The notes under the pieces are model-generated. The model was not told where the DNA came from and ran no database searches. It saw nothing but the letters and a program-made list of their open reading frames with translations. A program made the translations under genes and the position numbers. Positions 1,084-23,237 of a DNA stretch of 32,000 nucleotides are shown here, piece after piece (the first letter of the stretch is position 1; each line of letters opens with the position of its first letter). The stretch spans positions 2,970,001-3,002,000 of the forward strand of contig NZ_CP065936.1 of the NCBI RefSeq assembly GCF_003367075.2. The letters are read 5' to 3'. Origin of the DNA: Cylindrospermopsis raciborskii Cr2010 (lineage in GTDB: Bacteria; Cyanobacteriota; Cyanobacteriia; Cyanobacteriales; Nostocaceae).

Positions 1084-1770
1084 ATGGTTAAGTCTATACT
1101 TGTTATAGCTGCTCACCCAGATGATGAAGTATTGGGCTGTGGAGGTGCGATCGCATCTTACACTGCTCAAGGGGTGCCAGTAAACATTATATTTTTAGCT
1201 GATGGCATTTCTTCCCGCGATGCCCACAACATATCAGAGCTGGAATGTCGTCACCTAGCTGCCAAAAAAGCAGCACACTGTTTGGGAATTTCTGACATCA
1301 GTTTCAGTGATTTTCCTGATAACCAACTGGATACAGTTCCCCTATTATCAATAGTAAAACAGGTAGAACAGGCGATCGCTCGTTATAGACCGGATACAGT
1401 TTTTACCCACCATGTTGGAGATGTAAACATAGATCATCAAAAAGTACATCAAGCGGTAGTGACAGCATGTCGTCCCCAACCCCAACATCCGGTCAAAACT
1501 CTCCTATTTTTTGAAGTAGCTTCCAGCACTGAGTGGCAACCCCCCGGATCGGCGCCCAATTTTCAACCCAACTGGTTTATAGATATTTCCCATACCTTGA
1601 CCTTAAAACAGCAAGCGTTGGCTTTTTACAAGGAGGAGTTGCGTCCTTTCCCCCATTCCCGCTCTCAAGAAGCAGTTACCGCTTTAGCACGATGGCGTGG
1701 AGCAACAGTGGGAGTGAAAGCAGCAGAAGCCTTTATTCTAGGGAGACACCTGGATGAAAGTAGCCATTAG
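1084..1770 (+). CDS. PIG-L/LmbE-family N-acetyl-sugar deacetylase
   Basis: The N-terminal signature AHPDDEVLGCGG and the later HxxH-type region (HHVGDVNIDHQ) are typical of the PIG-L family. The 3' end overlaps the pseG start. Confidence 0.8.
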   Translation: MVKSILVIAAHPDDEVLGCGGAIASYTAQGVPVNIIFLADGISSRDAHNISELECRHLAAKKAAHCLGISDISFSDFPDNQLDTVPLLSIVKQVEQAIARYRPDTVFTHHVGDVNIDHQKVHQAVVTACRPQPQHPVKTLLFFEVASSTEWQPPGSAPNFQPNWFIDISHTLTLKQQALAFYKEELRPFPHSRSQEAVTALARWRGATVGVKAAEAFILGRHLDESSH

Positions 1771-3322
1771 AGTAGACTCTTCCCATCCCATGGGGTCTGG
1801 ACACTTAGTGCGTTGTCGCACCTTAGCAGAGGAATTACGCCTTCGAGGTGCGGATGTGAGATTTATCTGTCGGGATCACCCCGGTAATTTAGTCCACCTG
1901 CTTACCCGATCTGCTTTTTCTGTTACCGTTTTACCAGCACCGCCACTGTGTGAACCAACAGCAGAATACTACACTCAGTGGTTAGGAGTCAGTTCAGAAA
2001 CCGATGCAGCAGAGACCATAGAAGCTTTAGAGGGAGAAATTCCCGACTGGTTAATTGTAGACCATTATGGCATAGACCAATTTTGGGAGAGGAAATTGCG
2101 CCCCCATGTGGGTAAGATTCTAATCATAGACGACTTAGCTAATCGCCCCCATGATTGTGATGTGTTACTGGATCAGAATTACCAGTTACCCAATCATAGT
2201 TATGAGAAATTAGTACCTAATGATTGTCAATTGCTTTTGGGTTGCCATTATGCCTTACTGAGTCCCGAATATTGGCAATATCGTCAGACCTTAGCTTCCC
2301 GTAATGGTAAATTAGAGCGAGTGCTGATTTTCTTGGGTGGTACTGATCCGCAAAACATTACAGGTAAAGTCCTATCCGCCCTGTCTGCTCCAGAATTTGC
2401 CTTCTTACATTTGGACGTAGTAGTAGGTTCTAGTAATCCCCATAAACTACTATTACAACAACAAATTCAACAGCGTCCTCGAACCAATTTTTATGAAAAC
2501 CTTCCTCACCTAGCCCAGCTAATGGCTCATGCGGATTTAGCCATTGGAGCTGGAGGTACAACTACTTGGGAAAGACTGTGTTTAGGATTACCTAGCCTAG
2601 TCATTAGTATTGCGGAAAACCAAGTTCCAGCTTGTTTGGCTTTGTCGGATGTGGGGGCCATTATTTACCTAGGCACTGCCAATACAGTCAAAATAGAGGA
2701 TATACAAAATTCAATAAGTTCGCTGTTTCATAATACCGATACCCTAGAGAAAATATCTTATGGATGTAGACACTATGTAGATGGGTTAGGAGCGAAAAGA
2801 GTTACAGAGTATTTGAAACCGACTCATCAAAATCAACTAAGGCTAAGGCGAGCAAGAATAACAGATAAGTGGTTTTATTATACTTGGGTAAATGATATAG
2901 AAGTGCGTCGTCAGTCTTTTAATTCAGAACCTATCAGTTGGCAAGAACATGAAGCTTGGTTTGACAGAAAAATAGCAGATAATGATTGTTACCTTTGTGT
3001 ATTAGAAGCATCCGACCTACCGATTGGACAAATTCGTTTTGACCTAAAAGATGAAGAAGCACTAATTGACTATTCCCTAGATACCCTAGTAAGAGGAAGA
3101 GGTTGGGCTACCTCTCTTGTAAAAATGGGGGTAGATACTTTAGACTCTCTTAAACCCAAATACTTAAGAGCGGATGTAAAGTCTGATAATCCAGCATCGA
3201 GTGCGGTGTTTTTGCGCCTAGGTTTCCAAGAGGAAGATCCGTCATTCAATCAGAACCTTCAATCAGAACCTTCAATCAGAACCTTTCGCTTACCATTCTA
3301 TCCGACAGTCAAAGTTGGTTAA
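1754..3322 (+). CDS. pseG: PseG-like UDP-sugar hydrolase fused to a C-terminal PseH-like GNAT N-acetyltransferase domain. The present stop results from a frameshift at a 13-bp tandem repeat.
   Basis: The N-terminus IRVDSSHPMGSGHLVRCRTLAEEL is PseG-type GT-B. A C-terminal domain of about 150 aa (WVNDIEVRRQSF...IGQIRFD...RGRGWATSL...FLRLGF) is GNAT-like. The last 22 codons, after the repeat, read as low-quality sequence. Confidence 0.8.
   Translation: MKVAIRVDSSHPMGSGHLVRCRTLAEELRLRGADVRFICRDHPGNLVHLLTRSAFSVTVLPAPPLCEPTAEYYTQWLGVSSETDAAETIEALEGEIPDWLIVDHYGIDQFWERKLRPHVGKILIIDDLANRPHDCDVLLDQNYQLPNHSYEKLVPNDCQLLLGCHYALLSPEYWQYRQTLASRNGKLERVLIFLGGTDPQNITGKVLSALSAPEFAFLHLDVVVGSSNPHKLLLQQQIQQRPRTNFYENLPHLAQLMAHADLAIGAGGTTTWERLCLGLPSLVISIAENQVPACLALSDVGAIIYLGTANTVKIEDIQNSISSLFHNTDTLEKISYGCRHYVDGLGAKRVTEYLKPTHQNQLRLRRARITDKWFYYTWVNDIEVRRQSFNSEPISWQEHEAWFDRKIADNDCYLCVLEASDLPIGQIRFDLKDEEALIDYSLDTLVRGRGWATSLVKMGVDTLDSLKPKYLRADVKSDNPASSAVFLRLGFQEEDPSFNQNLQSEPSIRTFRLPFYPTVKVG
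3245..3285. repeat. Perfect tandem repeat of TTCAATCAGAACC (13 bp) x3 plus 2 further bases
   Basis: Read directly: 3245-3257, 3258-3270 and 3271-3283 are identical. The unit length is not a multiple of 3. Confidence 0.95.
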
Positions 3323-3339
3323 ACAACTACATTGCCCAA

Positions 3340-3930
3340 TTGTTAACAGACTGGTTAGAGGAAGGTCATCATGTTAAGTGGACACACCACATCAGAGACT
3401 TGCAAGGTGGGGATCTATGCTTCTATCTCAGTTATGGCAAGATTGTTCCTCCGTCTGTTCTGTCACAATTTAAACACAACCTAGTAGTGCATGAGAGTGA
3501 ACTACCGCAAGGTAAAGGTTGGTCACCGCTGACCTGGCAAATTCTGGAAGGCAAAAATGACATTCCTGTAACCTTGTTTGAAGCAGCAAAACAGGTAGAC
3601 AGTGGGAATATATATTTACAGCAATGGTTACATTTCCAAGGTCATGAAACCATAGATGAGCTGCGCCACGCCCAAGCCCAGTCCACATTAGAATTGTGTA
3701 AGGAATTTGTCAGAGAATATCCCGACATATTAAAAAGAACTCGACCTCAAGTGGGTAAATCCTCATTCTATCCCCGTCGAACACCCCAAGACAGTAAGCT
3801 GGATCCGCATATTTCCATAGGTGATCAGTTTAATTTACTACGGGTGGTAGATAATGAACGTTACCCGGCATTTTTTGAGTGGGCAGGTCGATTGTACGTA
3901 GTTAAAATTTATGTTCAACCTGCTCTGTGA
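3340..3930 (+). CDS. Formyltransferase-domain protein (Fmt N-terminal-domain family). It is probably the displaced C-terminal part of the pseG-GNAT ORF.
   Basis: HESELPQGKGWSPLTWQILEG matches the formyltransferase HxSLLPxxRG motif region. The same frame stays open upstream to 3190 and reads LTILSDSQSWLNNYIAQLL (3289-3339), a typical formyltransferase first strand. That stretch has no ATG/GTG/TTG before the TTG at 3340. Confidence 0.7.
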   Translation: MLTDWLEEGHHVKWTHHIRDLQGGDLCFYLSYGKIVPPSVLSQFKHNLVVHESELPQGKGWSPLTWQILEGKNDIPVTLFEAAKQVDSGNIYLQQWLHFQGHETIDELRHAQAQSTLELCKEFVREYPDILKRTRPQVGKSSFYPRRTPQDSKLDPHISIGDQFNLLRVVDNERYPAFFEWAGRLYVVKIYVQPAL

Positions 3931-4347: not shown

Positions 4348-5259
4348 ATGAAAACGGATAAATGGTTTTATAAATTATTTTTGTTACAACCGGGGATGCT
4401 GGCGGAGTTAATCCCTGGGGTAGATGCCCATTGGCAGTTTAGTTATAGCGCCCAGGTAATAAAGGAAACTGAATTTGATTTTGATGGCATTTTTACACCG
4501 CTAACGGATGACCCTACAGTCCCCATAGTGTTTGCAGAAGTCCAGATGCAAACAGAAAAGAATTTCTACCGACGATTTTTTGCTGAGATTTTTCTTTACT
4601 TAAAACAGTATGAAGTAAATCGCCCGTGGAAAGGTTTGTTGATTTTGCCCAGTCGAGGCTATAATGTGGGTGCGGAGTTACCTTACCGAGAGTTGTTGGA
4701 GCGAAGAGTAACGCGGCTGTACCTAACGGATTTGAGGGAAAGGCAAAACCTGAGTCCCAATTTTACCTTGTTACAGTTGTTAGGAACGAATGAGGAGGAG
4801 AGTGGGGAGATAGGTAAGGAACTGTTGCAAAGTGCAGAAACGGAGCCAGAGTTTGAGCATCGGTTGAGTTTGATAGAGACTATACTAGCAAATAAGTTCC
4901 CAGATTTGACGAAGGAGATGATTATGCAGTTGCTGGATTTGAAACAAACGGATATTACCCAGTCTCGTTTTTATCAAGAGATTCGTCAGGAGGGTCTCCA
5001 GGAAGGTCGCCAGGAAGGTATCCAGGAGAGTCTCCAGAAAATGGTGATTCGCCAACTAACTCGGCGACTGGGGGAGTTGTCGGAGCAACGGTTGGGACAG
5101 ATCCGGCAATTGTCAGTACCTCAATTAGAAGCACTGGCTGAATCTTTACTGGACTTTAGACAGATTTCTGATTTAGAAGCATGGTTAAAAGATTCACAAA
5201 AGTTCAATGATCTAAAACCACAAGTTGATATCCAAAATGGCAATCAACTAGATGTGTAA
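4348..5259 (+). CDS. Rpn/YhgA-like putative PD-(D/E)XK nuclease (cyanobacterial DUF2887-type N-terminus) with a DUF4351-type C-terminal module
   Basis: The N-terminus MKTDKWFYKLF...LAELIPG and FAEVQMQ resemble the cyanobacterial Rpn/putative-transposase family. It has a QEG-repeat linker. The C-terminus LEALAESLLDFRQISDLEAWL is shared with the two other paralogs in this window. Confidence 0.7.
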   Translation: MKTDKWFYKLFLLQPGMLAELIPGVDAHWQFSYSAQVIKETEFDFDGIFTPLTDDPTVPIVFAEVQMQTEKNFYRRFFAEIFLYLKQYEVNRPWKGLLILPSRGYNVGAELPYRELLERRVTRLYLTDLRERQNLSPNFTLLQLLGTNEEESGEIGKELLQSAETEPEFEHRLSLIETILANKFPDLTKEMIMQLLDLKQTDITQSRFYQEIRQEGLQEGRQEGIQESLQKMVIRQLTRRLGELSEQRLGQIRQLSVPQLEALAESLLDFRQISDLEAWLKDSQKFNDLKPQVDIQNGNQLDV

Positions 5260-5586: not shown

Positions 5587-6009
5587 ATGTTGCAAGCCAC
5601 CACTATACACATTTCTTATAAAAACAATTTACACAATATACTCCCAGATATAAAAGAACTACTGGACACTTGTTATCCCCGACCACCACGTAATGTTTTT
5701 TACCTCCTGATAGAGAAATACTGTGTTGGATTTCCTGTTTATATAGCCAGTGACAACTTTAACAGAATTGTCGGATTTACCTACCTAGCTATCAACAGCA
5801 AGGGGGGAACTCTAGAATCCTTAGCCGTGCATCCCGACTTCAGAAATCAAAACCTAGGTTCCCAGCTAGTTAACACCCTTCTCAAGGAGAATAAGGGAGT
5901 GATTCAAATTACGACCCGTGTTCCCAAATTTTTTGAGAAACTGGGCTTTGAGTATGTAAAAACCCTTCCCGACCAATCGCACTACATGATAAATATCAAC
6001 TTTAGTTAA
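5587..6009 (+). CDS. Small GNAT-family N-acetyltransferase (copy 1)
   Basis: Has the GNAT motif-A region LESLAVHPDFRNQNLGSQLV. About 96% identical at protein level to 17676..18098. Confidence 0.75.
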   Translation: MLQATTIHISYKNNLHNILPDIKELLDTCYPRPPRNVFYLLIEKYCVGFPVYIASDNFNRIVGFTYLAINSKGGTLESLAVHPDFRNQNLGSQLVNTLLKENKGVIQITTRVPKFFEKLGFEYVKTLPDQSHYMININFS

Positions 6010-6737
6010 ACATATTCCTATGAGCATTGCGATCGCAAGTAAAATATTAGGTAAAAGTCATCCCCCATTCATAATTGCGGAGATGTCGGGTAACCACAAC
6101 CAGTCTCTTGAAAGAGCCCTAGAAATAGTAGAAGTAGCAGCGAAAGCGGGTGTTGATGCACTCAAACTCCAGACCTATACAGCAGATACCATGACACTAG
6201 ACATAGAGACAGGGGAATTTTTCATTAACGATCCCAACTCTTTATGGCAAGGAAACTCACTACACAAACTTTATCAGCAAGCCTATACACCATGGGAGTG
6301 GCACGAGCCAATATTCAAACGTTGTGAAGAGCTAGGAATAATTGGTTTTAGCACCCCTTTTGACGAGACAGCCATTGAATTTTTAGAGTCATTGAAAGTT
6401 CCCTGCTATAAAATAGCATCCTTTGAGAACACCGACCTACCGCTAATTAGAAGAGTTGCCAAAACGGGGAAACCCATGATAATTTCCACAGGGATGGCCA
6501 ATATATGTGAACTAGATGAAACAGTACGTGCTGCCAGGGAAGCGGGTTGTCAAGACATAATTTTGCTAAAATGCACCAGCACCTATCCAGCCAGTGCAGA
6601 GAACAATAACATCGCCACAATTCCCCACCTGCGAGATTTATTTAACGTAGAAGCAGGAATATCAGACCATACATTAGAGCTGTTGGGAAATAAAAGCATA
6701 TTTCCGGATGACAGAACTTCCCCCATCCCGATTGAAT

Positions 6738-7349
6738 TTATGCTGCATCTAAATAGAAGTTCCATAGCCCTGCACTGACCAACATCAATTGATCATCAAA
6801 ATCGGTCACACGATTCCTATATACAGAATGTACACAGTTATATCTCTTAATTCCAGAGTGAGCGTGCTCACACACAACTCGCTGACGACTGAGTTCTCGA
6901 TTCTCCTCCTTTTGCTGCTGTGTTAACTCCTTACCTTTCGGTTTCTTGTGTGGTAAATGGACATTGACAAATTCTTTCTCCAACCCATGAAAACCCAAAT
7001 CTCCCTCTATTGCTACTTCATCAGGAATGTATTGCACTATCTCTGATTCATGGAGTAGCCGTTTGTCATGCACTTTACCTGCTCTGGTTTTCGTCAGAAT
7101 AATCACTCGTTTCTCCCTTGTGCTGACTGTAATCTGCTTGCATGTATGCCGCTTTTTCTTGCCAGAGTAATACTCTTTTTGGCGTTCTCGGTTTTGAGGA
7201 CGCTGGACTGGACGCTCCGTACCATCCACAATCACCTCCTTCACATCTGGAAACCTTTTGGTGAATTCCTGCTCCTGAGTTTGCGTGCTGGCAAAACTTG
7301 CTTTTCTCCTAAAGTGGTTTCTAGCACAGACAGTAGTCGATGTACCCAA
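6738..7349 (-). CDS. IS transposase orfB (DDE_Tnp_4 catalytic part), in the -1 frame relative to orfA
   Basis: VIVDGTERPVQRP...YYSGKKKRHTCK...DLGFHG...RVVCEHAHSGIKRY are DDE_Tnp_4-type motifs. The meaningful homology starts around TQEQEFTKRFPDVKEV. Confidence 0.8.
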   Translation of the reverse strand: MGTSTTVCARNHFRRKASFASTQTQEQEFTKRFPDVKEVIVDGTERPVQRPQNRERQKEYYSGKKKRHTCKQITVSTREKRVIILTKTRAGKVHDKRLLHESEIVQYIPDEVAIEGDLGFHGLEKEFVNVHLPHKKPKGKELTQQQKEENRELSRQRVVCEHAHSGIKRYNCVHSVYRNRVTDFDDQLMLVSAGLWNFYLDAA

Positions 7350-7642
7350 TCATGAGCACAGGAGCGGTCAAAGTTGAACAACACACTCAGCAAGTCAAAC
7401 GTCGGATAACATTTGCAGTACAGCAGGATATAAAATAGTTTTTCCTCTATACTTCTGAGTGTAGGCTTGCGTCCGCCCCCGGGCGCACGTTTGCGGTTTG
7501 CTAAGGAGTTGAACACGGTGCGTTCATAGGTATCAGCAAACTGAGATAACAGCTCGTTGAATGCTTGGCGGTTAAGTCCAGTCATTGCTCGTAGCAGTCG
7601 CTCTTGATTCAGGATGCGGTCTAAGTTCAACATTAATGTCAC
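7241..7642 (-). CDS. IS transposase orfA (HTH N-terminal part)
   Basis: RKRAPGGGRKPTL...YILLYCKCYPTFDLL...DRSCAHDWVHRL is typical of the HTH_Tnp_4 N-terminal region. It overlaps orfB by 109 nt. Confidence 0.8.
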   Translation of the reverse strand: MTLMLNLDRILNQERLLRAMTGLNRQAFNELLSQFADTYERTVFNSLANRKRAPGGGRKPTLRSIEEKLFYILLYCKCYPTFDLLSVLFNFDRSCAHDWVHRLLSVLETTLGEKQVLPARKLRSRNSPKGFQM

Positions 7643-8238
7643 CCTACTTGTCTGCTTGATTATTATCCCTTATTTTCCAACAACTCTATTAGGTATAGGG
7701 GTATCAGTAGCGAGTGTAGCCATAGGAGCCAGTGTAATAGAAAAACACTTTACCCTTTCCCGGTCTGATGGTGGAGTGGATGCCAGTTTTTCCATGGAAC
7801 CGGAGGAAATGGCCCAACTTGTGGTAGAGTCGAAAAGAGCTTGGCAAGCTTTAGGTCAAGTTCGTTATGGATCCACCGAAGAGGAGAAAAAATCGTTAAT
7901 ATTTAGGCGTAGCTTATATGTAGCTGAAGATATGAAAGCTGGAGAGATATTAACCAAAGAGAATGTGAGAGCGATTCGTCCAGGCTTAGGATTGCCCCCC
8001 AAGTATTTAGAATCACTCCTCGGATTAGCTGTGAAGAAAGATGTTAAAGCGGGAACTCCTTTATCCTTTGAGTTGTTGAAGTGACCTGTTTTCCTGGGAT
8101 CCCCCTTGGTGCGATATGATGTAAAGAAATGTAAAATAATCGCAATCCTTGGTTTATTTATGCAACAAGTTATGATATTATGCTGGCATGAGGTAATTGT
8201 TCCTCCTGTGTCTAAATGAAATATAAACTAAACTATAA

Positions 8239-9954: not shown

Positions 9955-10092
9955 AGACAAGTAGGGTAATATCAATGTTAAATTTAGACAGCATCCTGAA
10001 TAAAAATCGACTGCTATGAGCAGTGATTTGGACTCCATTGTAAGCATTTTAAGGGCTTTGACCCATTTTACACCTTTTTCTTCCATTTTATT
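9955..10092 (+). mobile_element. Fragment of a diverged relative of the 1012-bp IS (5' UTR and start of the transposase gene), lacking its terminal inverted repeat
   Basis: About 75-80% identical by eye to the reverse complement of 7550-7655 (AGACAAGTAGGGT..ATGTT.AA.TTAGAC.GCATCCTGAAT). The reading frame is broken by a stop after 14 codons. Confidence 0.65.
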
Positions 10093-10527
10093 CCTTGTGC
10101 TGACTGTAATCTGCTTGCATGTATGCCGCTTTTTCTTGCCAGAGTAATACTCTTTTTGGCGTTCTCGGTTTTGAGGACGCTGGACTGGACGCTCCGTACC
10201 ATCCACAATCACCTCCTTCACATCTGGAAACCTTTTGGTGAATTCCTGCTCCTGAGTTTGCGTGCTGGCAAAACTTGCTTTTCTCCTAAAGTGGTTTCTA
10301 GCACAGACAGTAGTCGATGTACCCAATCATGAGCACAGGAGCGGTCAAAGTTGAACAACACACTCAGCAAGTCAAACGTCGGATAACATTTGCAGTACAG
10401 CAGGATATAAAATAGTTTTTCCTCTATACTTCTGAGTGTAGGCTTGCGTCCGCCCCCGGGCGCACGTTTGCGGTTTGCTAAGGAGTTGAACACGGTGCGT
10501 TCATAAGTATCAGCAAACTGAGATACA
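10093..10527 (-). mobile_element. Internal fragment (copy D) of the 1012-bp IS, lacking both ends
   Basis: Essentially identical to 7116-7548 of copy A. It carries the A variant at the SNP that distinguishes copy B (cataAgtatc) from copy A (cataGgtatc). Confidence 0.9.
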
Positions 10528-10615: not shown

Positions 10616-11077
10616 ATGAACATCCATATAATCAATGTTGGACTCGGTAATGTCGCTAGCATTCAGAACATGCTAAAAAGGGTTGGTTACCCATCTAACT
10701 TACGAGTAACTCCTGATACCAATCAGATACCAGATCTAATTATCCTGCCTGGTGTGGGAGCATACGACACGGGCATGACACTTCTGGGAGAATACAACTG
10801 GACAAACTACCTCAAGGAGGTAGCTGATCAGGGAATTACCAAGATCTTAGGAATTTGCCTCGGTATGCAATTGCTGTGCGACGGTAGCGACGAAGGTAGT
10901 CACCCTGGACTAGGGTTGATTTCAGGACGCTTTCAAAGGTTTAAATCTGATAACTCTTCTCTCAAGGTACCTCACATGGGATGGAATGCCGTTGAGTTTA
11001 CAGAATTTGGCAGTTCTCTATTCTCAATCAGTCACCAAATGCCCCGTTTTTACTTTGTCCACTCGTATTATAAATAG
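10616..11077 (+). pseudogene. HisH-like glutamine amidotransferase (glycan-cluster type), 3'-truncated
   Basis: IINVGLGNVASI, PGVGAYD, and the catalytic-Cys context GICLGMQLL and PHMGWN are class-I GATase/HisH motifs. The ORF stops after FYFVHSYYK. The expected C-terminal ~50 aa with the His/Glu (QFHPEKS-type) region is absent in all frames before the IS at 11171. Confidence 0.7.
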
Positions 11078-11231
11078 GTCCCTTAGATAGCTGTACAACA
11101 GCTTAACCCATCCTTTTTGGACTTAGTTATAGATTTAAACGGCTCAAATCTAGATGAATGTAGATCTTTAGAGCTGTTGGGAAATAAAAGCATATTTCCG
11201 GATGACAGAACTTCCCCCATCCCGATTGAAT

Positions 11232-11843
11232 TTATGCTGCATCTAAATAGAAGTTCCATAGCCCTGCACTAACCAACATCAATTGATCATCAAAATCGGT
11301 CACACGATTCCTATATACAGAATGTACACAGTTATATCTCTTAATTCCAGAGTGAGCGTGCTCACACACAACTCGCTGACGACTGAGTTCTCGATTCTCC
11401 TCCTTTTGCTGCTGTGTTAACTCCTTACCTTTCGGTTTCTTGTGTGGTAAATGGACATTGACAAATTCTTTCTCCAACCCATGAAAACCCAAATCTCCCT
11501 CTATTGCTACTTCATCAGGAATGTATTGCACTATCTCTGATTCATGGAGTAGCCGTTTGTCATGCACTTTACCTGCTCTGGTTTTCGTCAGAATAATCAC
11601 TCGTTTCTCCCTTGTGCTGACTGTAATCTGCTTGCATGTATGCCGCTTTTTCTTGCCAGAGTAATACTCTTTTTGGCGTTCTCGGTTTTGAGGACGCTGG
11701 ACTGGACGCTCCGTACCATCCACAATCACCTCCTTCACATCTGGAAACCTTTTGGTGAATTCCTGCTCCTGAGTTTGCGTGCTGGCAAAACTTGCTTTTC
11801 TCCTAAAGTGGTTTCTAGCACAGACAGTAGTCGATGTACCCAA
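11232..11843 (-). CDS. IS transposase orfB (copy B)
   Basis: 203-aa product identical to 6738..7349. Confidence 0.8.
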   Translation of the reverse strand: MGTSTTVCARNHFRRKASFASTQTQEQEFTKRFPDVKEVIVDGTERPVQRPQNRERQKEYYSGKKKRHTCKQITVSTREKRVIILTKTRAGKVHDKRLLHESEIVQYIPDEVAIEGDLGFHGLEKEFVNVHLPHKKPKGKELTQQQKEENRELSRQRVVCEHAHSGIKRYNCVHSVYRNRVTDFDDQLMLVSAGLWNFYLDAA

Positions 11844-12136
11844 TCATGAGCACAGGAGCGGTCAAAGTTGAACAACACACTCAGCAAGTCAAACGTCGGA
11901 TAACATTTGCAGTACAGCAGGATATAAAATAGTTTTTCCTCTATACTTCTGAGTGTAGGCTTGCGTCCGCCCCCGGGCGCACGTTTGCGGTTTGCTAAGG
12001 AGTTGAACACGGTGCGTTCATAAGTATCAGCAAACTGAGATAACAGCTCGTTGAATGCTTGGCGGTTAAGTCCAGTCATTGCTCGTAGCAGTCGCTCTTG
12101 ATTCAGGATGCGGTCTAAGTTCAACATTAATGTCAC
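11735..12136 (-). CDS. IS transposase orfA (copy B)
   Basis: 133-aa product identical to 7241..7642. Confidence 0.8.
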   Translation of the reverse strand: MTLMLNLDRILNQERLLRAMTGLNRQAFNELLSQFADTYERTVFNSLANRKRAPGGGRKPTLRSIEEKLFYILLYCKCYPTFDLLSVLFNFDRSCAHDWVHRLLSVLETTLGEKQVLPARKLRSRNSPKGFQM

Positions 12137-12623: not shown

Positions 12624-13744
12624 GAGATGCCTCTTGTTGGGAATTAACCAAAAGATAACACCTATGTGAGATAATTTATTTTTAGCCAAGTCCAAATCTT
12701 GATAACTAAAATAAGTAGGTTCCCATTCGGAAACGAACAAGTCCACAAATAGTCATGATTACCTGTTCATACTTACTTGAATTTAATCGAAATCTTTCTT
12801 GTGCCACTCTGAATATTTTCACTACACGAATTAAATGTTCAACAAAAATTCGTTCGGAAGCTAACTCTTTATTTTTTTCTTTTTGTTCAGACGTTAATTC
12901 TTGGTTTTTAGGTTTTTTTGTCGGAGTTTTCATTAACTCCTCTCCTTGATAAGCTTTATCACCACTAAATTTTTGTTTTTTATCAAATATATTTCTGGTT
13001 TCACGGAATAAATTTACATCACTTTTTGGACCAGGTTTACCCGCTACTACATCAACAATATCTTTACCATTTGGTAAAACGATTAGTTGACTTTTTCTAG
13101 TATGACAGGCTTTTTTACCTGAATAATATTTTTTTTGTTCTTGGTACTCTCCAGGTCTGTCTATAGGCTGTTCATAGCTATCCACTATTAACTCAAATTC
13201 TGTTAATATTTCTTTAACGACTTCGTAATCACTGGAGTTTTTTTTTACCTGTTCTAGCAAACTTGGTGGCAATAATTCTCCTATTATTGGCAACCAATAG
13301 TTAAAGATATCATTTGCAGTTGTTTCACTTACTCCAAATTGAATACCTAGTAGCTGAAATGTTGTTAACTGCCGTAAATATGTTAATGTTAAGATTATTT
13401 GCTCCGACGGTGATAATTTGGGTTTGCGCCCTCCACCGCCTTGAATAATTCGGGTTTTTTTTGATTCAACCAATTGTTGTTTCTGATGATGCAGTTTTAT
13501 GGCTTTTTCCAAAAGTTGCTGTAACTGCTCATACTTCAGACCCAATAAACGGTGTGATTCGTGAGGATTATTCTGGATATATTCAGATATGTTGCTCATA
13601 ATAAGTTGCCAAAAATACCATTTCATATTATTTTATCACACTTTGATTCTTTTTCGGAGATGTCTATTTATCGATTCTGATCTTAGGAGAAAATATTTGA
13701 GAATTTCTTCTGCTTATGCTCACAAATACCAAAAATTATGGCTC
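12624..13744 (-). mobile_element. Second, related IS5-superfamily (Harbinger-like) IS with an uninterrupted transposase gene. The boundaries are tentative.
   Basis: The left end TTA|GAGATGCCTCTTGTTGGGAATTAACCAAAAG resembles the left end of the 1012-bp IS (TTA|GAGCTGTTGGGAAATAAAAG). The proposed right end (reverse complement GAGCCATAATTTTTGGTATTTGTGAGCATAAGCAG) is only weakly similar. Confidence 0.45.
12706..13626 (-). CDS. IS5/Harbinger-type DDE transposase (HTH_Tnp_4 + DDE_Tnp_4), single intact ORF
   Basis: GGGRKPKLSPSEQIILTLTYLRQLTTFQLL, VDSYEQPIDRP, YYSGKKACHTRK, SGDKAYQG and RIFVEHLIRVVKIF parallel the split transposase of the 1012-bp IS. The likely true start is MSNISEY at 13599. Confidence 0.8.
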   Translation of the reverse strand: MKWYFWQLIMSNISEYIQNNPHESHRLLGLKYEQLQQLLEKAIKLHHQKQQLVESKKTRIIQGGGGRKPKLSPSEQIILTLTYLRQLTTFQLLGIQFGVSETTANDIFNYWLPIIGELLPPSLLEQVKKNSSDYEVVKEILTEFELIVDSYEQPIDRPGEYQEQKKYYSGKKACHTRKSQLIVLPNGKDIVDVVAGKPGPKSDVNLFRETRNIFDKKQKFSGDKAYQGEELMKTPTKKPKNQELTSEQKEKNKELASERIFVEHLIRVVKIFRVAQERFRLNSSKYEQVIMTICGLVRFRMGTYLF

Positions 13745-14601: not shown

Positions 14602-15105
14602 GTGTTTTTAGATGAATCGGGGATAAATTTAGGGATGTCAAGGTTGTTTGCTAGAAGCCAAGATGGACAAAGAGCAATTGGTAGCGTACCAGGAAACAAG
14701 GGCAAAAATATTTCTCTGATTGGGGCTTTAAATATGGATGGAATTCTGGCAGCAATGACTGTAGAGGGAAGCACAAATACAGAAGTATTTCTCACTTATG
14801 TAAATCAGGTTTTAGTACCTCAATTATGGAAAGGGGCTATTGTTGTTATGGATAATTTAAAGGTTCATTATGCCGAGCGCGTGAGATTGTCAATTGAATC
14901 AGTCGGTGCAAAAGTTAAGTTTTTACCCCCCTATTCTCCAGACTTATCTCCGATAGAATTGTGTTGGTCAAAATTAAAGCAATTTCTCCGTAGTCGTGAG
15001 GCACGAACATTAGAAGCCCTAAATGAGTCCATGACAAGTGCAGTAAATTATATTACAGCAGAGGATGCGCTTAATTGGTTCAATCATTGTGGTTTATTTA
15101 CATGA
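14602..15105 (+). CDS. IS630 transposase orfB (DDE part)
   Basis: LVFLDESGINLGMSR, VMDNLKVH and PPYSPDLSPIELCWSKLK are IS630 DDE motifs. The same frame is open back to the A8 tract, reading KKSLNASEQETPRVQELRHDYRRWV. Confidence 0.85.
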   Translation: MFLDESGINLGMSRLFARSQDGQRAIGSVPGNKGKNISLIGALNMDGILAAMTVEGSTNTEVFLTYVNQVLVPQLWKGAIVVMDNLKVHYAERVRLSIESVGAKVKFLPPYSPDLSPIELCWSKLKQFLRSREARTLEALNESMTSAVNYITAEDALNWFNHCGLFT

Positions 15106-15187: not shown

Positions 15188-16190
15188 ATGACCCGATTCA
15201 TTCACGACCAATTTGCCAAGGACTACCTAGAAGAAATTCTCAGACCTTATGGGGAAATAGAATCTTCTAAGCGAGTTCCAGGAGAAGTTAGACAAATAGA
15301 CTGTTTCTTTTCTCCAGCAGGTGAAAAAATCACCAAACTATCGGGTTTAGGTGTACTAGGCAGTTTTGCCAGATTGCCGGGGGTATTTGAACCATTTAGG
15401 AATGCAGCATCAGAGGAAGAAATATGTGATTGCATATTGAAGCTACTGGAAATAAGAGGGTTAATGCAAAGGGAAGCAAAGCGAGATAAAACAAAACTAG
15501 ACGCCAGAAAAAGTTCCCTATCTGTGGATTTTGACACCAACAACGTCAAAGAAAATACTAAAAGGATTTAATGCTGTTGCAGAAAGCAATTCCTGTCAAG
15601 GAGTGTACCATTTAGGAAAAAGTCTGAGAACAAAGATTGTAGCGATTCACCACCTACCGAATACACCAGAAACATTATGGCTAAGAATATTGGGAAGGGG
15701 GAAAGTACGAACAAAAGCAATTGATCAGTTAGAAAAACTGACAGAAGATCACCCATTACGAAGAAAGGTGCTAGAATTGCTATATACTTTGAGACAAAAC
15801 TTGGAGCAAAGTGGAAAAGCTGAAGAAAGGGAAGATAAGGAGTTAATTATGAGGTTAGCACCACTATACCAGCAAGATATAGAAAAAGTGAGACAAGAAG
15901 GTCTTCAGGAAGGCGAACTTCGAGGAGAACAACGTGGAAGACAAGAAGGAAGACAAGAAGGACAGCGAAAGATAATATTACTGTTGCTGAATCACAAGTT
16001 TGATGGAATCGAGTCACCTGTGGTGGAAAGGATAAACAGACTATCACTAGAGCAATTAGAAGCAATGGGTGAATCTTTACTGGATTTTAGACAGATTTCT
16101 GATTTAGAAGCGTGGTTAAAAGACGCAGAAAAATCCGATGATCTAAAACCACAAGTTGATATCCAAAATGGCAATCAACTGGATGTGTAA
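15188..16190 (+). pseudogene. Rpn-like / DUF4351-family gene (MTRFIHDQFAKDYLEE type) split by a +1 A in an A5 run
   Basis: ORFs 15188..15571 and 15531..16190 overlap. Removing one A from AAAAA (15508-15512) gives the continuous reading ...KLDARKVPYLWILTPTTSKKILKGF.... The C-terminal ~100 aa are nearly identical to those of 16485..17447. Confidence 0.7.
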
Positions 16191-16478: not shown

Positions 16479-16484
16479 TTGTTT

Positions 16485-17447
16485 ATGGTAAAAAAATCAG
16501 ATATTGGCGGTAAACGTTTAATTGGACTTAGTCCACAGGCTTGGGGGCGTTGGGTCACGGGGGATAAAACGATCAAAGTTCAGGAAATTATTAACAGTGA
16601 ACTTCAATGGATCGAGCGGGAAAGTGATGTTTTGCTCAAGGCCCATAGTCCTGAGTGTGGCGATTTTATTCTGCTGAATGAGCTACAACTGCGCCATGAT
16701 GCTAAGATGCCCCGACGAATGAGAGCTTATGCTGCTCTAGTAGAGGAAAAGTATGGGCTACTAGTCTATCCAGTGGTCGTCAATATTCTTCAACCGGGGC
16801 CGACGGAGATAATTCGCAGCCGTTATGAGTCCGAAATTATGGGCTGTAGGGCCTATCAGGACTATCGGGTGATTAATTTGTGGGAGATTGAGGCGGAGAC
16901 GGTGTTTGAGCAAAATCTGTCTTCCTTGCTACCGTTTGTCCCAATTTTGAAGGGGGGTAATAGTGAGGTAAATCTCCGTCAGGCTCTACTCAATCTTCGC
17001 AAGAATGAAGTGTTGGGGGATTTGGAGCCATTGTTGTCTTTTTTTGCTAGCTTTGTATTTAATATCCCTTTAGTACAACAAATGATGAGGTGGGACATGA
17101 CGGTATTACGTGAATCGCCCTGGTACAACGAAATTCTTAAGGAAGGTCTTCAGAAAGGTCGTCAGGAAGGCGAACTTCGAGGAGAACAACGTGGAAGACA
17201 AGAAGGAAGACAAGAAGGACAGCGAAAGATAATATTACTGTTGCTGAATCACAAGTTTGATGGAATCGAGTCACCTGTGGTGGAAAGGATAAACAGACTA
17301 TCACTAGAGCAATTAGAAGCAATAGGTGAATCTTTACTGGATTTTAGACAGATTTCTGATTTAGAAGCGTGGTTAAAAGACGCAGAAAAATCCAATGATC
17401 TAAAACCACAAGTTGATACCCAAAATGGCAATCAACTGGATGTGTAA
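16485..17447 (+). CDS. Rpn/YhgA-like putative PD-(D/E)XK nuclease (SDIGGKRLIGLSPQAW type) with a DUF4351-type C-terminal module
   Basis: The N-terminal region DIGGKRLI..P.AW..WVT and LNELQLRHDAKMPRRMRAY fit the cyanobacterial Rpn/putative-transposase family. ATG 16485 is preferred over TTG 16479. The C-terminus is shared with 15188..16190. Confidence 0.7.
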   Translation: MVKKSDIGGKRLIGLSPQAWGRWVTGDKTIKVQEIINSELQWIERESDVLLKAHSPECGDFILLNELQLRHDAKMPRRMRAYAALVEEKYGLLVYPVVVNILQPGPTEIIRSRYESEIMGCRAYQDYRVINLWEIEAETVFEQNLSSLLPFVPILKGGNSEVNLRQALLNLRKNEVLGDLEPLLSFFASFVFNIPLVQQMMRWDMTVLRESPWYNEILKEGLQKGRQEGELRGEQRGRQEGRQEGQRKIILLLLNHKFDGIESPVVERINRLSLEQLEAIGESLLDFRQISDLEAWLKDAEKSNDLKPQVDTQNGNQLDV

Positions 17448-17675: not shown

Positions 17676-18098
17676 ATGTTGCAAGCTACTACCATACAGA
17701 TTTCTTATAAAAACAATTTAAACAATATACTCCCAGATATAAAAGAACTACTGGACACTTGTTATCCCCGACCACCACGTAATGTTTTTTACCTCCTGAT
17801 GGAGAAATACTGTGTTGGATTTCCTGTTTATATAGCCAGTGACAACTTTAGCAGAATTGTCGGATTTACCTACCTAGCTATCAACAGCAAGGGAGGAACT
17901 CTAGAATCCTTAGCCGTGCATCCCGACTTCAGAAATCAAAACCTAGGTTCCCAGCTAGTTAACACCCTTCTGAAGGAGAATAAAGGAGTGATTCAAATTA
18001 CAACCCGTATTCCCAAATTTTTTGAGAAACTGGGCTTTGAGTATGTAAAAACCCTTCCCGACCAATCACACTACATGATAAATATCAACTTTAGTTAA
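17676..18098 (+). CDS. Small GNAT-family N-acetyltransferase (copy 2)
   Basis: Paralog of 5587..6009 with five amino-acid differences by eye. Confidence 0.75.
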   Translation: MLQATTIQISYKNNLNNILPDIKELLDTCYPRPPRNVFYLLMEKYCVGFPVYIASDNFSRIVGFTYLAINSKGGTLESLAVHPDFRNQNLGSQLVNTLLKENKGVIQITTRIPKFFEKLGFEYVKTLPDQSHYMININFS

Positions 18099-18108
18099 AC
18101 ATATTCCT

Positions 18109-19158
18109 ATGAGCATTGCGATCGCAAGTAAAATATTAGGTAAAAGTCATCCCCCATTCATAATTGCGGAGATGTCAGGTAACCACAACCAGTCTCTTGA
18201 AAGAGCGTTAGAAATAGTAGAAGCAGCAGCGAAAGCGGGTGTTGATGCACTCAAACTCCAGACTTATACAGCAGATACCATGACACTAGACATAGAGACA
18301 GGGGAATTTTTCATTAACGATCCCAACTCTTTATGGCAAGGAAACTCACTACACAAACTTTATCAGCAAGCCTATACACCATGGGAGTGGCACGAGCCAA
18401 TATTTAAACGTTGTGAAGAGCTAGGAATAATTGGTTTTAGCACCCCTTTTGACGAGACAGCCATTGAATTTTTAGAGTCATTGAAAGTTCCCTGCTATAA
18501 AATAGCATCCTTTGAGAACACGGACCTCCCCCTAATTAGAAGAGTTGCCAAAACCGGGAAACCCCTGATAATTTCCACAGGGATGGCCAATATATGTGAA
18601 CTAGATGAAACAGTACGTGCTGCTAGGGAAGCGGGTTGTCAAGACCTAATTTTGCTCAAATGCACCAGCACCTATCCAGCCAGTCCACAGAACAGTAACA
18701 TTGCCACAATTCCCCACCTGCGAGATTTATTTAACGTAGAAGCAGGAATATCAGACCATACATTAGGTATAGGCGTATCAGTAGCGAGTGTAGCCATAGG
18801 AGCCAGTGTAATAGAAAAACACTTTACCCTTTCCCGGTCTGATGGTGGAGTGGATGCCAGTTTTTCCATGGAACCGGAGGAAATGGCCCAACTTGTGGTA
18901 GAGTCGAAAAGAGCTTGGCAAGCGTTAGGTCAAGTTCGGTATGGATCCACCGAAGGGGAGAAAAAATCGTTAATATTTAGGCGTAGCTTATATGTAGCTG
19001 AAGATATGAAGGCTGGAGAGATATTAACCAAAGAGAATGTGAGAGCGATTCGTCCAGGCTTAGGATTGCCCCCCAAGTATTTAGAATCACTCCTCGGATT
19101 AGCTGTGAAGAAAGATGTTAAAGCGGGAACTCCTTTATCCTTTGAGTTGTTGAAGTGA
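18109..19158 (+). CDS. pseI: PseI/NeuB-family nonulosonic (pseudaminic-type) acid synthase, intact copy
   Basis: FIIAEMSGNHNQSLERALEIV..AK.AGVDALKLQTY is the NeuB-family TIM-barrel N-terminus. It has a C-terminal SAF/antifreeze-like domain (RSLYVAEDMKAGEILTKENVRAIRPG.GL). PseG occurs in the same locus. Confidence 0.85.
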   Translation: MSIAIASKILGKSHPPFIIAEMSGNHNQSLERALEIVEAAAKAGVDALKLQTYTADTMTLDIETGEFFINDPNSLWQGNSLHKLYQQAYTPWEWHEPIFKRCEELGIIGFSTPFDETAIEFLESLKVPCYKIASFENTDLPLIRRVAKTGKPLIISTGMANICELDETVRAAREAGCQDLILLKCTSTYPASPQNSNIATIPHLRDLFNVEAGISDHTLGIGVSVASVAIGASVIEKHFTLSRSDGGVDASFSMEPEEMAQLVVESKRAWQALGQVRYGSTEGEKKSLIFRRSLYVAEDMKAGEILTKENVRAIRPGLGLPPKYLESLLGLAVKKDVKAGTPLSFELLK

Positions 19159-22737: not shown

Positions 22738-23237
22738 TCCTTACGTTCTAACAACTCTTCAAAAATCTCATAGTGGCTTTTTTCCATTCCCAGGGACTGA
22801 TAAGTCCTCTTGGCAATTACATTCTCTTTTTCCACATAAAGTCTAAACCCAGAAACTTTCAGCCCACTTGTTTGGGTTTTTGCCTGCTGTTTCACGGCTT
22901 GATATAAAGCTTTAAAAACCCCCTGACGACGAAAATCCGGGTGAACGTATACACTCTGAATCCACCAGTATAAACCATTACGCCAGTCACTCCATTCTGT
23001 GGTAACCATTAGGGACCCAACCACCTGATTATTCTTCTGAGCTAAAAGATAAAATCCTAAACTGGGATTTTTTAATAGTGTTTTCACGCCTGCATTAATA
23101 TCATTAATAGGTAGTTGTTTGTTTTCAGTTTCATATATTAATGCCTGGTTAAATTCAACCAGAACCTGTAAATCCCCCAGTTCACCTTGGCGAATTAGCA
23201 AGTCCGATGCCATATTTTCCTCCATTCCATATAGCAA
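22734..23237 (-). CDS. GNAT-family N-acetyltransferase
   Basis: VYVHPDFRRQGVFKALYQAV is GNAT motif A. The true start may be one of the internal Met codons (MEENMAS). Confidence 0.8.
   Translation of the reverse strand: MLYGMEENMASDLLIRQGELGDLQVLVEFNQALIYETENKQLPINDINAGVKTLLKNPSLGFYLLAQKNNQVVGSLMVTTEWSDWRNGLYWWIQSVYVHPDFRRQGVFKALYQAVKQQAKTQTSGLKVSGFRLYVEKENVIAKRTYQSLGMEKSHYEIFEELLERKD

Follow-up and report, generated by a model that had tools for sequence, protein, structure and literature searches.

The 32,000-nucleotide stretch of Cylindrospermopsis raciborskii Cr2010 considered here (positions 2,970,001 to 3,002,000 of contig NZ_CP065936.1; hereafter the window, with coordinates counted from its first base) contains a nonulosonic-acid island that encodes an aminotransferase, a PIG-L deacetylase, a PseG-GNAT protein, a formyltransferase (Fmt)-like domain, a DUF2887/DUF4351 protein, a small GNAT and NeuB/PseI. 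The subject of this analysis is the junction between the PseG-GNAT open reading frame (ORF) and the formyltransferase-like domain, where a 13-nucleotide sequence is repeated in tandem. The PseG-GNAT ORF occupies positions 1754–3322 of the plus strand, and its 522-residue product, which is identical to UJL33124.1 of C. raciborskii Cr2010, matches the PseG profile TIGR03590 over residues 1–291 (E-value of 2e-93) and the GNAT profile Acetyltransf_3 over residues 362–492 (E=1e-14). The formyltransferase-like domain (213 codons plus stop) lies on the same strand at 3289–3930 in the −1 frame, one base behind the PseG-GNAT frame, and matches Formyl_trans_N with an E-value of 3.5e-10 as well as the ArnA and Fmt models.

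A triplicated 13-mer sets the frame between two domains

The linker between the GNAT and formyltransferase-like domains holds three perfect tandem copies of TTCAATCAGAACC at 3245–3283 on the plus strand, with copy starts at 3245, 3258 and 3271, and the TT that follows the third copy supplies two bases of a fourth and extends the array to 3285. Tandem Repeats Finder reports the same element (3245–3285, period 13, 3.2 copies, 100% matches, score 82), so that the three perfect units described at this junction by a first-pass annotation made from the letters of the sequence are confirmed. No other exact copy of the unit occurs in the 32-kilobase window and a single-mismatch copy is found once, at 23154; a perfect 39-nucleotide triplication cannot plausibly have arisen by chance in 32 kilobases. 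The final 22 residues of the PseG-GNAT product, LQSEPSIRTFRLPFYPTVKVG, and its TAA stop at 3320–3322 derive from the extra repeat units and from the N-terminus of the formyltransferase-like domain read out of frame.

Since the unit is 13 nucleotides long, the gain or loss of one unit moves the downstream frame by one base. Rebuilding the gene with different unit numbers gave a single ORF of 716, 729 or 742 amino acids with one, four or seven units, respectively, and truncated products with zero, two, three, five or six, which is the arithmetic that the first-pass annotation had put forward, including its 716-residue fusion at one unit. The domain order of this conceptual fusion is PseG (1–291), GNAT (362–492) and Formyl_trans_N (544–632). 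With the three units actually present it is not one uninterrupted frame, and the −1 position of the third domain makes the window a frame-broken member of the family. The formyltransferase-like frame is open from 3190, and its upstream part on the plus strand (3190–3339) contains no ATG, GTG or TTG; the earliest candidate is TTG 3340, as had also been claimed.

The annotated start removes the first strand of the domain

A fundamental question is where the formyltransferase-like domain begins. The TTG at 3340–3342 (plus strand) is the annotated start of a 196-residue ‘formyltransferase family protein’ (UJL33125.1, identical). The 17 codons before it (3289–3339) encode LTILSDSQSWLNNYIAQ, which makes up strand 1 together with the N-terminal half of helix 1; in the homologue alignment these codons carry five nearly invariant residues (S5, D6, S9, W10 and N12). 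The AlphaFold2 model of the domain has a mean predicted local distance difference test score (pLDDT) of 89.7, with a strand at residues 2–4 and a helix at residues 12–24 (pLDDT 94–95). Among 138 non-redundant related loci, 87 carry a stand-alone formyltransferase gene, and the first start codon of these genes lies 1–19 codons before the conserved ‘I-L-S-D-x-x-S-W’ strand, most having an ATG 2–8 codons before it. The near-invariant residues, the modeled strand and these starts agree with the earlier suggestion that the frame upstream of TTG 3340 encodes a plausible first beta-strand of a formyltransferase, and the segment 3289–3339 is the true N-terminus of the formyltransferase-like domain. 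TTG 3340 is probably not a functional start: the 196-residue protein lacks strand 1, half of helix 1 and the five near-invariant residues, and would be a crippled fragment. The annotation is better taken to mark the third domain of a fused gene, shifted out of frame.

Structural comparison with Foldseek places the domain model with the sugar N-formyltransferases WbkC, VioF and Rv3404c and with ArnA and Fmt (top matches, E about 1e-11, template modelling score 0.7–0.77). H68 and D104 are invariant in 35 homologues, and the Formyl_trans_N fold with an invariant His and Asp at the catalytic positions is shared with PseJ (PDB 6ci2/6ci4), the N-terminal domain of ArnA, WbkC, VioF and Rv3404c. The genomic setting in a pseudaminic-acid cluster is likewise that of PseJ. 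In contrast to these enzymes, the domain has a Val two residues before H68 and a nearly invariant Asn four before it (N-L-V-V-H, residues 64–68) in place of the canonical N-x-H, and its N-terminal part is much shorter than in ArnA or Fmt (about 26 residues against about 62 in ArnA). At the sequence level the ArnA N-terminal domain matches with E=3e-11 and PseJ with E=7e-6, and the latter similarity is too weak to claim PseJ membership. Formyltransferase activity, which in such enzymes transfers formyl from N10-formyl-tetrahydrofolate to an amino sugar nucleotide, is a plausible prediction for the domain from its fold and its invariant His and Asp, with the conserved Asn displaced. Pse5Ac7Fo, an N-formylated pseudaminic acid, has been described together with its formyltransferase PseJ, and N-formylation of the 4-amino sugar is a known variant in pseudaminic-acid clusters (PMC11040635).

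The codons of the first strand (CTT TCG CTT ACC/AGC ATT CTn TCC GAC) hardly differ even at synonymous positions when genera are compared, although the proteins of those genera share only about 62–65% identity (compared at L001 3926–4030, window 3284–3310, L085 4479–4613 and L172 3952–4116). Dual-frame constraint from the alternative PseG-GNAT tail and recombination are both possibilities.

Fused homologues and a repeat hot spot at the junction

The conceptual 716-residue fusion aligns with 99% coverage to numerous three-domain proteins of about 715–730 amino acids from cyanobacteria, Sulfuricella, Nitrospirota, Anaerolineales, Methanospirillum and many metagenomes, an example being the 730-residue protein of Baaleninema simplex (62% identity). 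The question posed with the first-pass annotation, whether orthologs are fused, is thus answered positively in both bacteria and archaea, and the fusion is a common native architecture. Beside the stand-alone genes, the 138 loci comprise 12 PseG-Fmt fusions, 21 in-frame GNAT-Fmt or PseG-GNAT-Fmt fusions, 3 other fusions and 15 frame-broken loci, 13 of which are broken at the GNAT/Fmt junction.

Simple repeats are concentrated at this junction. Under strict thresholds and within 60 nucleotides of strand 1, a simple repeat was present in 22 of 34 GNAT/Fmt junctions compared with 5.5% of 12,975 background windows taken from the same loci (Fisher p=9e-20). None of the 12 PseG/Fmt fusions carried one, and 8 of the 87 stand-alone genes did, all of them poly-A. 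Every frame-broken GNAT/Fmt junction that was read has a simple repeat just 5′ of strand 1, a few of them short or interrupted: (CAAT)8 in Sphaerospermopsis aphanizomenoides (L085), (CAAT)5 in a related Nostocales contig (L176), (AC)8 and (AC)4 in two related contigs, (CAAA)4 in Marithrix, G8, G11 and G6CG3 in several lineages, C9 in Phormidium yuhuli, C10 in a Limnothrix-like contig and C6 in another contig. Many of the in-frame fusions have such tracts as well: C11 (Baaleninema), (AC)6, G9 in five lineages, C7–C10 and A7–10G7–8. Junction tracts are kept between sequences that are only 61–85% identical at the DNA level, a persistence not expected of a neutral homopolymer. One innocent cause of G and C runs would be a Gly/Pro linker; it was rejected on the grounds that AC, CAAA, CAAT and the 13-mer occupy the same spot, that the ORF downstream is intact in many of the alleles that are out of frame, and that PseG/Fmt fusions have no repeats.

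Two lineages show further arrangements of the same junction. In a G-tract lineage (L103 2201–2335 and L115 2411–2545), the formyltransferase frame of the out-of-frame G8 alleles contains an ATG shortly before the tract (...GATGG...), and the same bases are read as Asp-Gly in a G9 in-frame allele (L011 3926–4030); a one-base change may here toggle between a fused and a separately initiated domain and not between ON and OFF. In the close relative L082 (6001–7248; also L083, L084 and L086) a separate 356-residue PseG is encoded, and a PseH-type GNAT is fused in frame to the formyltransferase via C10. The L082 domain is more than 95% identical to window 3289–3930 from about residue 33 and its first 30 residues are highly diverged, a pattern that suggests a recombination breakpoint right at the junction.

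In-frame and out-of-frame alleles in sister taxa

Alleles that join the three domains in one frame are here called ON and those that do not OFF. Both kinds occur inside single 90%-identity protein clusters in Sphaerospermopsis, Limnospira/Arthrospira and Phormidium yuhuli. In Sphaerospermopsis, (CAAT)6 (L177) gives a 716-residue ON fusion reading ‘...QSINQSINQQLSLTILSD’, seven units give a 542-residue OFF product and (CAAT)8 (L085) an OFF product of 533 residues, and the flanks of the (CAAT)6 and (CAAT)8 loci are 96–98% identical. Limnospira/Arthrospira has 725-residue and 523/524-residue forms that differ at a poly-C run, and P. yuhuli has in-frame forms of 732 and 652 residues together with an out-of-frame form of 538. 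Several P. yuhuli assemblies of nearly the same genome (4.75–4.76 Mb) disagree on poly-C length (L171, L172 3952–4116; P0098, P0213, P0214), a sign either of true heterogeneity within the culture or of errors in homopolymer sequencing. Limnothrix-like sequences, which differ from one another by three C, remain OFF.

The out-of-frame tails of Cylindrospermopsis, ‘...FRLPFYPTVKVG’ with three units and ‘...FAYHSIRQSKLVK’ with two, are an exact parallel to the Sphaerospermopsis tails, which places the window at ‘ON plus two units’. Alignment of the junctions indicates how the 13-mer may have originated. The Sphaerospermopsis junction reads ...(CAAT)n CAGCAGC TTTCGCTTACC, that of L176 reads ...(CAAT)5 CATAACC TTTCGC and that of C. 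raciborskii reads ...TCAT (TTCAATCAGAACC)x3 TTTCGC, such that the 13-nucleotide unit covers the last CAAT and the next seven bases. On this alignment, the tetranucleotide tract has collapsed to a single CAAT in the C. raciborskii lineage, and a 13-nucleotide piece of the same linker has been triplicated instead.

Unit number among Cylindrospermopsis

Three perfect units with identical flanks are present in all six assemblies examined at the DNA level: Cr2010, CS-505 (two assemblies), CS-508, a Logan read-run assembly and C. curvispora GIHE-G1. Ten distinct sequences of the 522-residue form are on record. The census of unit number draws on the members of protein clusters and on look-ups of exact proteins. 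A single ENA metagenome contig (L081), with otherwise identical flanks, carries a two-unit allele whose 536-residue product (P0134) is that predicted for two units. Unit number does vary in nature, in line with the first-pass interpretation, with this contig, at 7x coverage, as the sole variant allele. A search with the conceptual fusion returned no full-length match above 62% identity, and neither a scan of genome contigs (best match 66%) nor one of metagenome contigs (best match 84%, a PseH-type GNAT-Fmt fusion) returned a Cylindrospermopsis locus.

The out-of-frame ORF remains under constraint

None of the seven Cylindrospermopsis sequences has an interruption in the 213-codon frame, and the formyltransferase frame is also intact in Sphaerospermopsis, Phormidium and two further OFF loci. 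Between Cylindrospermopsis and Sphaerospermopsis, both OFF, synonymous divergence (dS) is saturated at about 2, nonsynonymous divergence (dN) is 0.13 and dN/dS is 0.06. Between the three-unit strains Cr2010 and CS-505 there are 5 synonymous and 4 nonsynonymous changes, giving a dN/dS of 0.22 that is comparable to the 0.26 of the neighbouring PseG-GNAT gene. When Sphaerospermopsis serves as the outgroup, 7 amino-acid changes are unique to the C. raciborskii lineage and 19 to the closely related in-frame GNAT-Fmt fusion of L082, so that no amino-acid acceleration is seen in the OFF lineage by this comparison. Substitution patterns of this kind indicate that the silent formyltransferase ORF is under purifying selection.

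Discussion

How might a domain be conserved when it is out of frame in every sequenced genome of its lineage? We hypothesize that the array is a slipped-strand contingency switch that currently rests in the OFF state two units above ON, and we regard this as probable, if well short of secure. According to this model, the array sits in the inter-domain linker of an ancestrally single gene composed of PseG (the uridine diphosphate-sugar hydrolase of the pseudaminic-acid pathway), a GNAT acyltransferase and the formyltransferase-like domain. With three units, ribosomes would end PseG-GNAT at TAA 3320–3322 with a 22-residue alternative tail, and the formyltransferase-like domain, lying in the −1 frame with no start codon, would not be made. 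Slipped-strand mispairing at replication to four units or to one would then yield a three-domain enzyme of 729 or 716 residues. The effect would be to toggle one N-acyl (formyl) decoration of a pseudaminic-acid-type surface sugar and to keep the core pathway running. For this the 13-mer would have to reach ON states at a useful rate, which we presume that it does, and the benefit to the cell might be ecological, such as evasion of phages or grazers.

What argues most strongly for a switch is the concentration of repeats at this junction in many lineages, together with the presence of both ON and OFF alleles in single species. Slippage at the DNA level is the best-supported mechanism because the repeat types are unrelated between lineages and because real in-frame and out-of-frame DNA alleles exist. 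A broader hypothesis is that the junction is a convergently evolved, long-maintained hypermutable domain switch across cyanobacteria, environmental bacteria and archaea, of which the 13-mer would be one working instance. On this hypothesis unrelated repeats (poly-C, poly-G, AC, CAAA, CAAT and the 13-mer) would have been recruited to one linker, and clonal populations of free-living, bloom-forming microbes would spread their risk over surface sugars with different N-acyl groups, the likely threats being phages or grazers. We offer the broader hypothesis tentatively, as a possibility that falls a little short of an even chance.

Several observations weigh against a working switch in C. raciborskii itself. 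Three copies of a 13-nucleotide unit should slip less often than the long tracts of the sister taxa. No one-unit or four-unit ON allele of the 13-mer was present among 5.8 billion protein clusters, and within the species only three-unit and two-unit alleles, both OFF, were found where a switch would be expected to show ON and OFF together. The unit count is the same in strains whose flanking genes differ at a dS of 0.04–0.07, from which it follows that switching is slow relative to classical contingency loci. The binomial test of the Cr2010 and CS-505 comparison against neutrality gives p=0.027 on only nine substitutions. Some of the homopolymer ON/OFF differences between assemblies, as in P. 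yuhuli, could be sequencing errors. Moreover, the (CAAT)5 locus L176 (4018–4325) has lost formyltransferase residues 18–121, and this internal deletion implies that OFF can end in decay; one member of the L176 protein cluster is placed in Cylindrospermopsis by NCBI. In L176, ATP-grasp and TylF-type methyltransferase genes follow the domain at the position where other loci have the small GNAT, and the locus is an example of a different glycan-modification gene set.

Some of these points can also be read as the signature of a gene locked off on its way to decay, in which an old, fixed frameshifting duplication left an array too short to switch and an ORF that is a young pseudogene, not yet interrupted by stops. 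The uniform three units of the isolates and the failure to find an ON allele in the protein clusters agree with this explanation, as do the reduction of the (CAAT)n tract of the sister taxa to a single CAAT, the internally deleted domain of the related lineage, and the insertion-disrupted pseI copy and many insertion sequences that the strain carries in the island. We consider it unlikely, if a serious contender, since the ORF is intact in seven of seven sequences, evolves among three-unit strains at a dN/dS like that of its functional neighbour and departs from neutrality, shows no acceleration on the C. raciborskii branch, and is preceded by an array that does slip, as the two-unit allele demonstrates. 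The sharing of three units by strains at a dS of 0.04–0.07, together with the intact downstream ORF and its dN/dS of about 0.2, also speaks against the recent inactivating expansion that the first-pass annotation had proposed as one of two readings. That the triplication might be absent from the real genome, as an assembly or sequencing artefact, has no point in its favour and is a negligible prospect given identical arrays and flanks in independent assemblies of several strains (Cr2010, CS-505 twice, CS-508, GIHE-G1 and the Logan read-run assembly), and the concern raised with the original observation is thereby settled.

An alternative hypothesis is that the fusion, or a full-length domain, is made at three units after all, by −1 frameshifting, transcriptional slippage or a non-canonical start at an ATC within the repeat. 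Recoding would explain why the ORF stays constrained although no sequenced genome has it in frame, most OFF cyanobacterial alleles share the relative frame that a −1 shift would correct, and older annotations placed starts at ATC that give 222-residue products (P0140 and the gene called in L085). However, the PseG-GNAT frame from 3225 to 3322 contains no slippery heptamer of the form X XXY YYZ, no motif is common to the window junction and the other frame-broken loci, and the RNA at 3284–3400 folds at −25.3 kcal/mol, which is not significant (z=−1.36, 23 of 200 shuffles as stable); structure over the repeat itself is not unusual either (z=+1.06). Programmed frameshifting was rejected on these results. 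A 13-nucleotide heteropolymer is not known to be a substrate for RNA-polymerase stuttering, and repeats that differ wholly between lineages fit slippage of DNA and not a conserved recoding signal, as do the real in-frame DNA alleles of sister species. Recoding in any form is thus an improbable explanation. More improbable still is the arrangement of two ordinary genes that current RefSeq/GenBank annotation implies (UJL33125.1 and relatives, 196 residues), with the second translated alone from TTG 3340. Translational coupling is conceivable, since this codon lies 18 nucleotides after the PseG-GNAT stop. The product would nevertheless lack strand 1, half of helix 1 and five near-invariant residues, whereas all 87 stand-alone homologues start before strand 1, and the TTG is not conserved in Sphaerospermopsis L085, where no canonical start occurs within 20 codons. 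An independent start at TTG 3340 was rejected for these reasons, as was an internal promoter, because a promoter scan showed no site upstream of the formyltransferase part and no excess over shuffles.

The slipped-strand switch that we favour has clear relatives among simple sequence repeat (SSR) contingency loci. Repeat-driven phase variation is textbook biology in host-adapted pathogens, and Haemophilus influenzae carries (CAAT)n in lic1A and lic3A, the same tetranucleotide that is used by the sister cyanobacteria. To our knowledge, it is scarcely documented in free-living phototrophs, and a literature search over a limited collection returned nothing on repeat-driven phase variation in cyanobacteria. 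As in known SSR contingency loci, the repeat is intragenic, perfect and in tandem, its unit is not a multiple of three so that copy number shifts the frame, the enzyme affected modifies surface glycans and is encoded in a nonulosonic-acid island, and ON and OFF alleles occur within species, here in sister cyanobacteria with other repeats. The hosts differ in being free-living bloom-forming cyanobacteria, environmental bacteria and archaea and not pathogens, and the repeat lies at a domain boundary about 500 codons into the gene, such that only the C-terminal domain would be switched and PseG-GNAT would still be made. The unit of 13 nucleotides, the three copies and the lack of a recovered ON allele set C. 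raciborskii apart from such loci.

Formyltransferase-domain and pseudaminic-acid modification genes of Campylobacter and Helicobacter undergo simple-repeat phase variation (PMC6321876, PMC2823697, PMC3068675), including a phase-variable ‘formyltransferase domain-containing protein’ of C. fetus with G(9–10) (PMC6321876). Nearest to the present case are the Campylobacter genes for modification of flagellar pseudaminic acid that carry poly-G tracts (for example cj1295 and the maf genes). In Helicobacter canadensis, homopolymeric tracts switch C-termini, among them that of HCAN_0643, annotated as a methionyl-tRNA formyltransferase (Snyder et al. 2010, PMC2823697). There, as here, a repeat late in the coding sequence alters or removes the C-terminal part, and a formyltransferase-family gene in a glycan island is involved. 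The H. canadensis loci exchange short C-terminal tails, whereas the junction described here would attach or detach a whole, independently folding domain of 213 residues, and the same junction carries different repeat types in many lineages.

If this model is correct, bloom-forming Cylindrospermopsis, Sphaerospermopsis, Arthrospira/Limnospira, Limnothrix and Phormidium would vary a surface nonulosonic acid stochastically, with a bearing on cyanophage host range, grazing and bloom dynamics. The junction would then clearly illustrate how a switch can take away one catalytic domain while the remainder of a multi-domain enzyme continues to function, and the use of unrelated repeats at one linker would be evidence of selection for mutability itself.

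Surroundings of the junction

The PIG-L family deacetylase gene (1084–1770, plus strand) overlaps the start of pseG and is a conserved neighbour in all related cyanobacterial loci. Downstream, a region at 5587–8084 on the plus strand contains a small GNAT (5587–6009) and a first NeuB/PseI synthase gene that is split into 6020–6778 and 7614–8084 (NeuB profile positions 1–184 and 182–239) by an insertion sequence with transposase ORFs at 6738–7642 on the minus strand (DDE_Tnp_4, HTH_Tnp_4). The pseI gene at this first position is uninterrupted (349 residues) in CS-505 and CS-508. A second, intact pair consisting of a small GNAT (140 residues) and NeuB/PseI (349 residues; NeuB and SAF, E=1.5e-86) lies 11–12 kilobases downstream at 17676–19158 on the plus strand and is 95–98% identical to the first (repeat families D4 and D5). 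Given this second copy, the nonulosonic-acid synthase step is probably still available; the pathway can therefore probably still run, and the state of the junction may still matter.

The island is rich in mobile elements, which lie at 6674–7642, 10087–10386, 11168–12136, 12706–13626 and 14602–15105 and comprise two full copies and one partial copy of one insertion sequence (99–100% identical) and a further two genes for transposases; between them is a glutamine amidotransferase ORF that is truncated (10616–11077). Three paralogous DUF4351 proteins are encoded at 4348–5259, 15531–16190 and 16479–17447, the first alone with a DUF2887 match, and their genes contain internal 12-nucleotide imperfect repeats, for example at 4987–5037 and 17135–17170. 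In related strains DUF4351 proteins likewise lie between the formyltransferase gene and pseI.

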